Virus record (IMG/VR): IMGVR_UViG_2872192773_000009
Source of the DNA: a virus
Taxonomy: Duplodnaviria > Heunggongvirae > Uroviricota > Caudoviricetes
Direction: 5' to 3' (one strand)
DNA length: 24,800 nt
Shown: positions 15,942 to 16,251 of the stretch, piece after piece
Layout: each line of letters starts with the position of its first letter
Position numbering within the stretch: the stretch's first letter is position 1
The notes under the pieces: model-generated
Databases searched by the model: none
The model's input: the letters and a program-made list of their open reading frames with translations, nothing else
Told to the model about the DNA's origin: nothing
Position numbers and translations under genes: made by a program

Positions 15942-16016
15942 TGGAGCGGGCAGCGGGAATCGAACCCGCATCATCAGCTTGGAAGGCTGAGGTAATAGCC
16001 ATTATACGATGCCCGC
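15942..16016 (-). tRNA. tRNA-Gly (anticodon UCC), phage-encoded
   Basis: 75 nt GCGGGCATCGTATAATGGCTATTACCTCAGCCTTCCAAGCTGATGATGCGGGTTCGATTCCCGCTGCCCGCTCCA; all stems perfect, anticodon loop CUUCCAA, encoded CCA. Confidence 0.75.
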
Positions 16017-16019
16017 ATA

Positions 16020-16095
16020 TGGTGCCGACTACCGGAATCGAACTGGTGACCTACTGATTACAAGTCAGTTGCTCTACCTACTGAGCCAAGTCGGC
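16020..16095 (-). tRNA. tRNA-Thr (anticodon UGU), phage-encoded
   Basis: 76 nt GCCGACTTGGCTCAGTAGGTAGAGCAACTGACTTGTAATCAGTAGGTCACCAGTTCGATTCCGGTAGTCGGCACCA; anticodon loop CUUGUAA; one A.C mismatch in the T-stem. Confidence 0.7.
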
Positions 16096-16097
16096 AC

Positions 16098-16174
16098 TGG
16101 ACCGCCACCGGGGACTCGAACCTCGCACACTCAACTTAAAGGGTTGACGCTCTTTCCTGATGAGCTAGTGGCGG
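16098..16174 (-). tRNA. tRNA-like gene, nominal anticodon UUU (Lys) with atypical C33; possibly degenerate
   Basis: 77 nt CCGCCACTAGCTCATCAGGAAAGAGCGTCAACCCTTTAAGTTGAGTGTGCGAGGTTCGAGTCCCCGGTGGCGGTCCA. Perfect acceptor (C1-G72), D and anticodon stems; TTCGAGT T-loop; anticodon loop CCUUUAA; A.C mismatch in the T-stem. Confidence 0.45.
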
Positions 16175-16175
16175 T

Positions 16176-16251
16176 TGGTGGCCCTTGCTGGATTTGAACC
16201 AGCGACCTGGCGATTATGAGTCGCTCGCTCTCACCACTGAGCTAAAGGGCC
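16176..16251 (-). tRNA. tRNA with CAU anticodon, ileX/ileZ-like (tRNA-Ile2, or elongator Met)
   Basis: 76 nt GGCCCTTTAGCTCAGTGGTGAGAGCGAGCGACTCATAATCGCCAGGTCGCTGGTTCAAATCCAGCAAGGGCCACCA; close to E. coli ileX as I recall it. Confidence 0.7.

Follow-up and report, generated by a model that had tools for sequence, protein, structure and literature searches.

The window analyzed here, a 24,800-nucleotide (nt) stretch of Caudoviricetes DNA (IMG/VR record IMGVR_UViG_2872192773_000009), contains four tightly packed transfer RNA (tRNA) genes in the late region of a lambdoid prophage. According to our analysis, these genes very probably form a real, working cassette of mosaic origin. The explanation that we consider probable overall joins this mosaic origin to two functions: three of the tRNAs would supply codons, and the fourth, which carries the lysine anticodon UUU, would evade nucleases that destroy host tRNA-Lys.

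ARAGORN called four tRNA genes occupying exactly positions 15942–16251, all on the minus strand, where they are read in the order Ile2-CAU, Lys-UUU, Thr-UGU and Gly-UCC (Table 1). The initial annotation, made from the letters alone, had placed four tRNAs with 1–3 nt spacers at the same coordinates; it gave no strand, and its order of anticodons is that of the minus strand and agrees with ARAGORN. The spacers measure 1 nt (16175), 2 nt (16097–16096) and 3 nt (16019–16017), and the CCA end is encoded in all four genes. Covariance scoring, which had been proposed as a check, gave 72.5, 44.4, 72.5 and 64.9 bits for Ile2, Lys, Thr and Gly, respectively, against the Rfam family RF00005 (E-values of 1e-6 to 1e-14), and all four genes passed the gathering score of 29 bits.

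The Ile2, Thr and Gly genes have the whole canonical core set (U8, A14, G18-G19, T54-Psi55-C56 and U33). The set is incomplete in the UUU tRNA, where U8, A14, the D-loop GG and the T-loop TTC are kept and C33 stands in for U33. Its anticodon loop reads C-C-U-U-U-A-A, with the UUU anticodon and A37 present, and its other features, read directly from the sequence, are C1-G72, U73, C16, G39-U40-U41 and A51.C63. The C33 and C1-G72 of this tRNA had been recognized correctly from the start, as had the single A.C stem mismatch in three of the four genes, which lies at A27.C43 in Ile2, A51.C63 in Lys and A52.C62 in Thr. The Gly gene has a non-standard D-stem pair that is native to glyT.

Comparison with the tRNA genes of Escherichia coli K-12 and with the ileZ-argN-argO cluster of Shiga toxin (Stx) phages (933W type; AP012530) divides the array, on grounds of sequence identity, into two modules: an upstream Stx-phage half composed of ileZ and an argN-type tRNA, and a downstream half composed of copies of host thrU and glyT. 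The initial annotation had identified the location as the slot in which Stx phages carry ileZ-argN-argO, and the first gene is indeed identical to ileZ of Stx2a_F349 (76 of 76 positions) and to the equivalent gene of the PPompW prophages (100%). It differs from host ileY at six positions and has A27.C43 where ileX and ileY have G27.U43. It keeps C4-G69, C5-G68, A73, U12-A23 and C29-G41, by which TilS and IleRS recognize tRNA-Ile2; C4-G69 and C5-G68 set it apart from tRNA-Met. The CAU tRNA is thus predicted to be of the Ile2 type, a lysidine-dependent decoder of AUA.

The second gene is a derivative of argN. It aligns poorly with lysT over its full length, and its nearest relative is the Stx-phage argN (anticodon UCG), with which it is identical at 65 of 77 positions. 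Common to both genes are C1-G72, U73, A51.C63 and the entire T arm, and in each case a spacer of 1 nt separates the gene from ileZ. Among the 12 differences are those at four stem pairs, all of which stay paired: 30:40 is G-C in argN and A-U in the UUU tRNA, and 27:43, 7:66 and 3:70 pass from G.U to Watson-Crick pairs. Because every changed pair is still paired, the UUU tRNA is at least as well formed as argN, and their Rfam scores are 44.4 and 43.0 bits. In the anticodon loop the genes differ at positions 33, 35 and 36; argN reads UCG with U33, whereas the prophage gene reads UUU with C33 on an altered anticodon stem. Judged by these identities, the UUU tRNA is an arginine tRNA body of the argN type with a UUU anticodon stem-loop, presumably re-fitted, and a fixed C33. 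Recruitment of a tRNA gene by anticodon change has reportedly been achieved experimentally in E. coli, from tRNA-Arg(UCU) to tRNA-Thr(UGU). In both cases the body of one amino-acid family bears the anticodon of another, but the prophage gene departs from argN at three loop positions and two anticodon-stem pairs and not at one base.

The downstream half has another ancestry. The Gly gene equals host glyT at 75 of 75 positions, and the Thr gene differs from host thrU by one change, A9G, a minority allele present in 8 of 102 copies. In the proposed comparison with host genes, Thr and Gly thus correspond to thrU and glyT, whereas the UUU tRNA proved unrelated to lysT. The Thr and Gly genes take the place of argO (UCU) and its terminator in the Stx cluster, which otherwise shares with the prophage the slot downstream of Q, the promoter-like hexamers and ileZ. 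The PPompW prophages present an intermediate form, Ile-Lys-Arg(UCU). In phage phi467 (1743–1896 of the locus L008) the Thr-Gly pair stands alone, ~500 nt downstream of stxB, and homology to the window stops at the Lys/Thr boundary. This pair therefore travels as a module of its own, and the array is mosaic, put together from at least two modules that recombine at tRNA boundaries. Direct copying of the host operon thrU-tyrU-glyT was considered as the source of the Thr-Gly half and rejected, because the spacers and flanks share nothing. Compared with the host thrU-tyrU-glyT-thrT operon, the mature Thr and Gly sequences are equal or nearly so, but the gene order differs, tyrU is absent here and the spacers and flanks are dissimilar. 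Mature sequences that are host-like within unrelated flanks are a sign of longer-term constraint, and a compensatory change from C6-G67 to U6-A67 in 13 Gly copies is a further one.

These origins change the meaning of the oddities. The mismatches had been taken as a possible sign of decay, and this interpretation fails: the mismatch of Thr is already present in thrU, that of Lys is common to argN and that of Ile2 occurs in every copy of ileZ. Since they are inherited from genes accepted as functional, they are not evidence of decay. Processing at every junction is needed, as had been stated, but such spacing is ordinary for E. coli; in the host lysT-valT-lysW-valZ-lysY cluster valT and lysW are separated by 2 nt and valZ and lysY by 3 nt, and glyT and thrT lie 6 nt apart.

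Table 1. Features of the window that bear on the tRNA cassette and its surroundings.
Feature	Position	Strand	Basis and remarks
tRNA-Ile2 type (CAU)	16176..16251	-	ARAGORN (Met/Ile2-CAT), Rfam, ileZ alignment; labeled tRNA-Ile by the Prokaryotic Genome Annotation Pipeline (PGAP)
UUU tRNA on argN body	16098..16174	-	ARAGORN (Lys-TTT), Rfam 44.4 bits; PGAP label tRNA-Lys
tRNA-Thr (UGU), host thrU with A9G	16020..16095	-	ARAGORN (Thr-TGT), Rfam, alignment
tRNA-Gly (UCC), 100% identical to host glyT	15942..16016	-	ARAGORN (Gly-TCC), Rfam, alignment
Late antiterminator Q gene, 247 amino acids	16450..17193	-	Pfam PF06323 Phage_antiter_Q, E 4.8e-91; full-length, directly upstream of the cassette
pR'-like late promoter, TTGCAA-17-TATATT	16433..16461	-	Consensus scan, 9/12 matches; overlaps the end of Q
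tR'-like terminator hairpin, AAAACCCGCCCACAAGCGGGTTTT then TT	16359..16382	-	Hairpin search; GC stem, then T run
Sigma-70-like promoter, TTGCAA-17-TATTAT, then GC-rich discriminator	16261..16289	-	Consensus scan
Structured spacer between tRNA-Gly and holin	15757..15935	-	Three perfect hairpins; fold z = -5.05
Phage-21-type holin gene	15434..15649	-	Pfam PF04971, E 1.4e-35; first late gene downstream of the cassette
IS66-family element, three open reading frames	13442-15335		~100 nt after the holin gene
Phage integrase gene	20392-21432	+	Adjoins tRNA-Ser(CGA)
tRNA-Ser(CGA)	21460-21549	-	Beside integrase
tRNA-Asn(GUU)	22541-22616	+	Beyond tRNA-Ser(CGA)
sok/CssrC, part of hok/sok	19152-19327	-	Rfam 119 bits, above threshold
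ipaH-type NEL E3 ligase gene	1311-2954	+	Opposite end of the remnant from integrase
CssrB, Shigella small RNA	1004-1183	-	Rfam 230 bits, above threshold
IS009	44-247	-	Rfam 129 bits, above threshold

Codon usage points to a role for three of the four tRNAs. We ranked the 61 sense codons by the ratio of their frequency in the annotated genes of a carrier phage, vB_EcoS-689R5 (9,810 codons), to that in a 50-kb region of K-12 (14,748 codons), a comparison of one phage genome with one host region. High in this list are the codons of Ile2, Thr-UGU and Gly-UCC: ATA is fourth (2.9x; Ile2), ACA sixth (2.4x; Thr), GGA seventh (2.4x; Gly) and GGG tenth (1.9x; Gly). The other codons among the first ten, AGG (1), AGA (2), CGG (3), CGA (5), TCA (8) and AGT (9), are not read by the array. 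The lysine codons rank 16 (AAG, 1.33x) and 24 (AAA, 1.18x). It is therefore probable that Ile2, Thr-UGU and Gly-UCC supply decoding for AUA, ACA, GGA and GGG; with neither AAA nor AAG enriched, the Lys tRNA is not accounted for by codon supply, which fits the other three. The arginine codons AGG, AGA, CGG and CGA, the most strongly enriched of all, are served by argN and argO in the Stx-type array, and codon supply thus fits both array types.

Pure codon compensation, in which all four tRNAs including Lys-UUU serve A-ending codons of AT-richer phage and cargo genes, is the strongest competing explanation, and we consider it doubtful. The ranks of ATA, ACA, GGA and GGG agree with it, and so does AAA use in the early genes of vB_EcoS-689R5, which is 49.5 per 1000 codons against 34.0 in the host. 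A parallel exists in phage SfI, where the authors inferred codon compensation for a tRNA-Thr located after Q, with ACA at 17.3% in the phage and 7.1% in the host (PMC3636060). But AAA in the late genes of vB_EcoS-689R5 (32.8 per 1000) is below the host value, the host is already rich in tRNA-Lys(UUU) genes (five of them in one 1.1-kb cluster), and this explanation does not account for the replacement of argN by a Lys tRNA and of argO by Thr and Gly when arginine codons hold ranks 1, 2, 3 and 5.

The UUU tRNA is the one gene of the array that codon usage leaves unexplained, and its anticodon is that of a host tRNA targeted by defense nucleases. Several anti-phage tRNases converge on host tRNA-Lys(UUU), among them AriB of the PARIS system, PrrC, P2 Old and a bacterial Schlafen (PMC12409363, PMC3025547, PMC12445682, PMC13056530). 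PrrC cleaves it 5' of the wobble base U34 (PMC3025547). AriB cleaves within U36-A-A-U-C|A41, its cleavage being abolished by U39A and impaired by A41C and U16C; its other prime target is tRNA-Thr(UGU), a secondary one being tRNA-Asn(GUU) (PMC12409363). P2 Old, which acts as effector in the classical interference between P2 and lambda, requires paired CNG motifs in the anticodon stem and cleaves behind their C, after C40; thrU is its preferred substrate, and tRNA-Lys receives a single nick (PMC12445682). A bacterial Schlafen also favors tRNA-Lys (PMC13056530). The tRNA-Lys of phage T5 resists AriB and rescues infection (PMC11464382).

At positions 16, 33, 39, 40 and 41 host lysT has U, U, U, C and A, T5 tRNA-Lys has C, U, A, C and C, and the prophage UUU tRNA has C, C, G, U and U. 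Neither strand of the anticodon stem of the UUU tRNA (UCAAC/GUUGA) contains a CNG motif. Every published determinant for AriB and P2 Old is thus absent from this tRNA, and C33 lies at the PrrC cut site. With a body and an anticodon arm unlike those of host tRNA-Lys, the UUU tRNA would not be recognized by these nucleases, and we tentatively propose, as the possibility that we prefer, that it is a spare tRNA-Lys that escapes the host tRNA-Lys nucleases of the AriB, Old and PrrC types. It resembles T5 tRNA-Lys in its anticodon, which is that of the host target, in C16 and in the lack of U at position 39 (PMC11464382, PMC12409363). The differences are that T5 is virulent and carries ~24 tRNAs, whereas the prophage is temperate and carries four; that T5 tRNA-Lys has a lysT-like body (G1-C72, A73 and U33), whereas the prophage gene has an arginine tRNA body with U73 and C33; and that resistance and rescue have been demonstrated for T5 tRNA-Lys, whereas for the prophage tRNA they are predicted from its sequence.

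The anti-defense reading does not extend to Thr or Gly, given the host-like arm of the Thr copy. This copy keeps the host anticodon arm, including UAAUCA and a paired CNG motif, so that both AriB and Old are predicted to cut it. Against P2 Old, over-expression of host thrU protected cells little and did not rescue them, which also speaks against an anti-defense role of the whole array; for the Thr copy, a role against Old or PARIS was accordingly set aside as unlikely. Phage SfI likewise has tandem tRNAs between Q and holin, including one for threonine with the anticodon UGU, but both of its tRNAs are strongly diverged from the host, whereas Thr and Gly here are host copies. In SfI (939–1091 of the locus L136) the tRNA-Thr has G39-C40-G41 and a 27:43 mismatch, and the tRNA-Asn has C39; this Thr fits the type with an altered CNG and a shorter stem that was reported as resistant to Old (PMC12445682). 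In phages 21 and SfI the slot after Q is occupied by diverged tRNAs of the Asn-GUU and Thr-UGU types. Taken across lambdoid phages, post-Q slots thus include all three main targets of PARIS (Lys-UUU, Thr-UGU and Asn-GUU), a pattern that is suggestive only. A wider proposal, that the anticodon-switched argN-type tRNA is a built-in counter-defense and that the post-Q slot is a locus directed against the Toprim tRNases of classical competitors, P2 (Old) and P4-type satellites (PARIS), which prefer these same three tRNAs, is somewhat less likely than the evasion by the Lys tRNA itself, and we regard it as speculative.

The array is widespread. The full 801-nt block occurs in 282 of 5,426 complete E. 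coli genomes (~5%), whose hosts include chicken, pig, cattle and humans, and there PGAP labels the genes Ile, Lys, Thr and Gly; it is also present in the inducible phages vB_EcoS-689R5, vB_EcoM-606R7 and PhiR47_1. Among the first 120 IMG/VR matches to the argN-type T arm, 90 loci had the arrangement Ile-1-Lys-2-Thr-3-Gly, 12 the PPompW type (Ile-1-Lys-13-Arg(UCU)) and 6 ileZ-argN-argO; 11 had truncated arrays or other spacings, and at one locus no tRNA was called. In a survey of one genome per species, covering 185,579 species, tRNAs with the exact 20-base T-arm/acceptor word of the UUU tRNA body came from E. coli and S. flexneri only, and at two further matches ARAGORN finds no tRNA. With normal spacing, ancestral mismatches and an array that is common and already annotated in public records, most of the features that had seemed odd are ordinary.

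The Lys gene varies more. It was found in 798 of the 5,426 complete E. coli genomes (~15%), and in 279 of them as an allele at least 99% identical to that of the window. Two common variant alleles exist, one with a 1-nt deletion in the D stem (the type of the PPompW prophages) and one with C4U/U8C/C11U; PGAP annotates neither, Rfam gives no tRNA match at E <= 0.001 at the loci representing them (L011 and L020), and both look degenerate. All 113 copies of the gene in IMG/VR carry C33; their position 32 is variable. An IMG/VR search for a U33 version, or for other anticodons on the same stem, returned no U33 version of the UUU tRNA. Of its 22 matches, 21 are unrelated and not called as tRNA by ARAGORN, and one is an unrelated phage tRNA-Arg(CCU) in L138. 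This metagenomic phage contig has a cluster of six tRNAs (Lys-CTT twice, Arg-CCT, Thr-TGT, Thr-GGT and Val-TAC), of which the Arg(CCU), at ~478–550 of the extracted segment, has the anticodon stem TCAAC/GTTGA and a D arm similar to that of the prophage Lys tRNA. The records ON470583 (18282–18588) and ON470580 annotate Met, Thr and Gly and omit the Lys tRNA between them.

Across 40 aligned copies (the sample comprises 39 full-length IMG/VR copies), Ile2 has a nucleotide diversity of 0.0007, Lys of 0.013, Thr of 0.008 and Gly of 0.006, against 0.005–0.034 in flanking non-coding DNA. At this scale only Ile2 is clearly constrained; diversity is low everywhere, which leaves the sample without power to detect selection on Lys, Thr and Gly.

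Several of these observations weigh against a combination of codon supply and nuclease evasion. On the side of codon supply, the strongest enrichment, that of the arginine codons, goes unserved in this array, and the ranking has the narrow base given above. As for evasion, the resistance is extrapolated from determinants mapped on other tRNAs. Moreover, C16, G39 and the lack of a CNG motif are inherited from the argN body and need not reflect selection for evasion; specific to the Lys form are C33, U40, U41 and the anticodon. The C33 replaces a near-universal U33 and may lower performance, and LysRS prefers A73 where this tRNA has U73. That only 279 of the 798 genomes with the gene carry the allele of the window points to dispensability, two of its common alleles escape recognition as tRNA, and the diversity of Lys, Thr and Gly is no lower than that of most flanks. 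The main alternative for the Lys tRNA is that it is weak or dispensable and decaying in many lineages.

A separate alternative is a decaying remnant: a dead prophage would carry the array along as neutral cargo, and the UUU tRNA would be a pseudo-tRNA. The prophage is heavily degraded, as IS66 immediately follows the holin gene, elements of the IS1 and IS3 types interrupt the prophage and its early region is missing; the Thr gene has the minority A9G, and C33 and U73 are atypical. The unrecognized Lys alleles, the two records lacking a Lys annotation and the diversity values of three of the four genes point the same way. However, all four genes of the window exceed the Rfam threshold, Gly is identical to a working host gene and Thr is one position away from another, every stem pair changed relative to argN stays paired, the Gly copies show compensatory change, phages named as isolated virions carry this allele too, and the mismatches are ancestral and common to functional genes. 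We therefore consider neutral decay of the array unlikely. The suggestion in the initial annotation that the array is decaying does not hold for this copy, and applies in part to the Lys gene elsewhere, in its two unrecognized alleles.

The genomic setting is that of the late-operon leader of E. coli/Shigella lambdoid prophages: the cassette follows Q, a pR'-like promoter and a tR'-like terminator and precedes the lysis genes. The Pfam matches to Q upstream and to holin downstream agree with the placement originally given, between the Q-dependent late promoter and the holin gene. The role of pR' is assigned to the upstream promoter from its position, and the hairpin is the expected tR', which would end a short leader transcript. 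The leader between them (16357–16430, minus strand) has sub-threshold Rfam matches to isrK (22.5 bits, E 0.017) and isrJ; it may be a late-leader RNA related to these Salmonella prophage small RNAs, or the match may be due to chance. The -10 hexamer of the second, sigma-70-like promoter ends 9 nt before tRNA-Ile2. Both of its hexamers are invariant in the 40 aligned copies, and a Stx phage and the PPompW prophages share them, with homology to the window setting in just upstream of the -35; the tRNA module is thus predicted to carry its own promoter. Downstream of tRNA-Gly, the structured spacer has hairpin arms of 11, 14 and 9 nt, and a Rfam scan of it (15757–15935) found no family match; the 142 nt adjoining tRNA-Gly (15800–15941) have 3 segregating sites in 40 copies.

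Under the explanation that combines codon supply with nuclease evasion, Q-modified polymerase would probably transcribe the cassette in lytic growth, and the sigma-70-like promoter would probably provide a second route. RNase P would cut the 5' end of each tRNA and 3' exonucleases would trim the tails of 1–3 nt, as in host operons; these steps are those of established E. coli tRNA processing. Ile2, Thr and Gly would then add decoding capacity, and the UUU tRNA would stand in for cleaved tRNA-Lys.

The prophage itself is a defective Shigella/E. coli remnant inserted beside tRNA-Ser(CGA). From the Ser end it retains integrase, hok/sok, DUF968, RusA, Q, the tRNAs, holin, IS66, broken head and tail genes and ipaH. 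The IS66 element occupies the place where the lysozyme and Rz genes follow holin in related prophages, so that the lysis cassette is disrupted, and the head and tail genes are interrupted by IS3-type and IS1 elements. The same Ser/Asn tRNA neighborhood flanks phage vB_EcoS-689R5 and the locus L132.

A cassette that stays intact in a remnant with disrupted lysis and early genes, behind a predicted promoter with invariant hexamers, might also serve lysogenic conversion, being expressed constitutively and aiding translation of AT-rich virulence genes such as ipaH. The ipaH gene (546 codons) has raised use of AUA (14.7 per 1000), ACA (11.0) and GGA (11.0). But the array leaves unserved AGA (16.5) and AGG (11.0), the most extreme of the rare codons in ipaH, and AAA use in this gene is low (16.5). 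The block also occurs in the 282 E. coli genomes from varied hosts, which is only suggestive here, as the ipaH status of those genomes was not part of the comparison. This alternative is about as improbable as neutral decay. The initial idea of an array tuned to the codons of cargo genes is borne out as far as ipaH is rich in AUA, ACA and GGA, and fails for AGA, AGG and the unenriched AAA; the array is not tuned to ipaH. It is most improbable that the tRNAs act mainly as RNase P signals by which the late mRNA is freed of the pR' leader and its stability is set: their place in the late-operon leader, their very close packing and the structured, conserved spacer just downstream would suit such a function, but many lambdoid phages have no tRNAs in this slot, and processing signals would need neither host-identical sequences nor anticodons matching enriched codons.

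In the literature searched, we found no paper on this array, on ileZ/argN/argO or on the combination of Lys, Thr and Gly in prophages, although some may exist. Relative to that literature, three features appear to be new, at least to us: the mosaic of a Stx-phage module with host-type thrU and glyT; the argN body with a UUU anticodon and a fixed C33; and a UUU tRNA that alone in its array is not explained by codon usage and yet lacks the mapped determinants of tRNA-Lys nucleases. An annotation problem also comes to light, since the Lys gene is called in some public records and omitted in others. Should the Lys tRNA be inactive, the analysis would still show that the mismatches of the array are inherited features of working genes and not evidence of decay.

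Phage tRNAs have long been regarded as helpers in codon usage, and in virulent phages such as T5 some tRNAs are nuclease-resistant replacements for host tRNAs destroyed by defense systems. The cassette described here may offer an example of a nuclease-resistant tRNA from a temperate phage. The two roles seem to stand side by side in it: the near-exact host copies fit codon supply, and the arginine body with a lysine anticodon may fit evasion. The UUU tRNA makes a natural elongator-type tRNA with C33 available for study, and it bears on the competition between P2/P4 and lambdoid phages.

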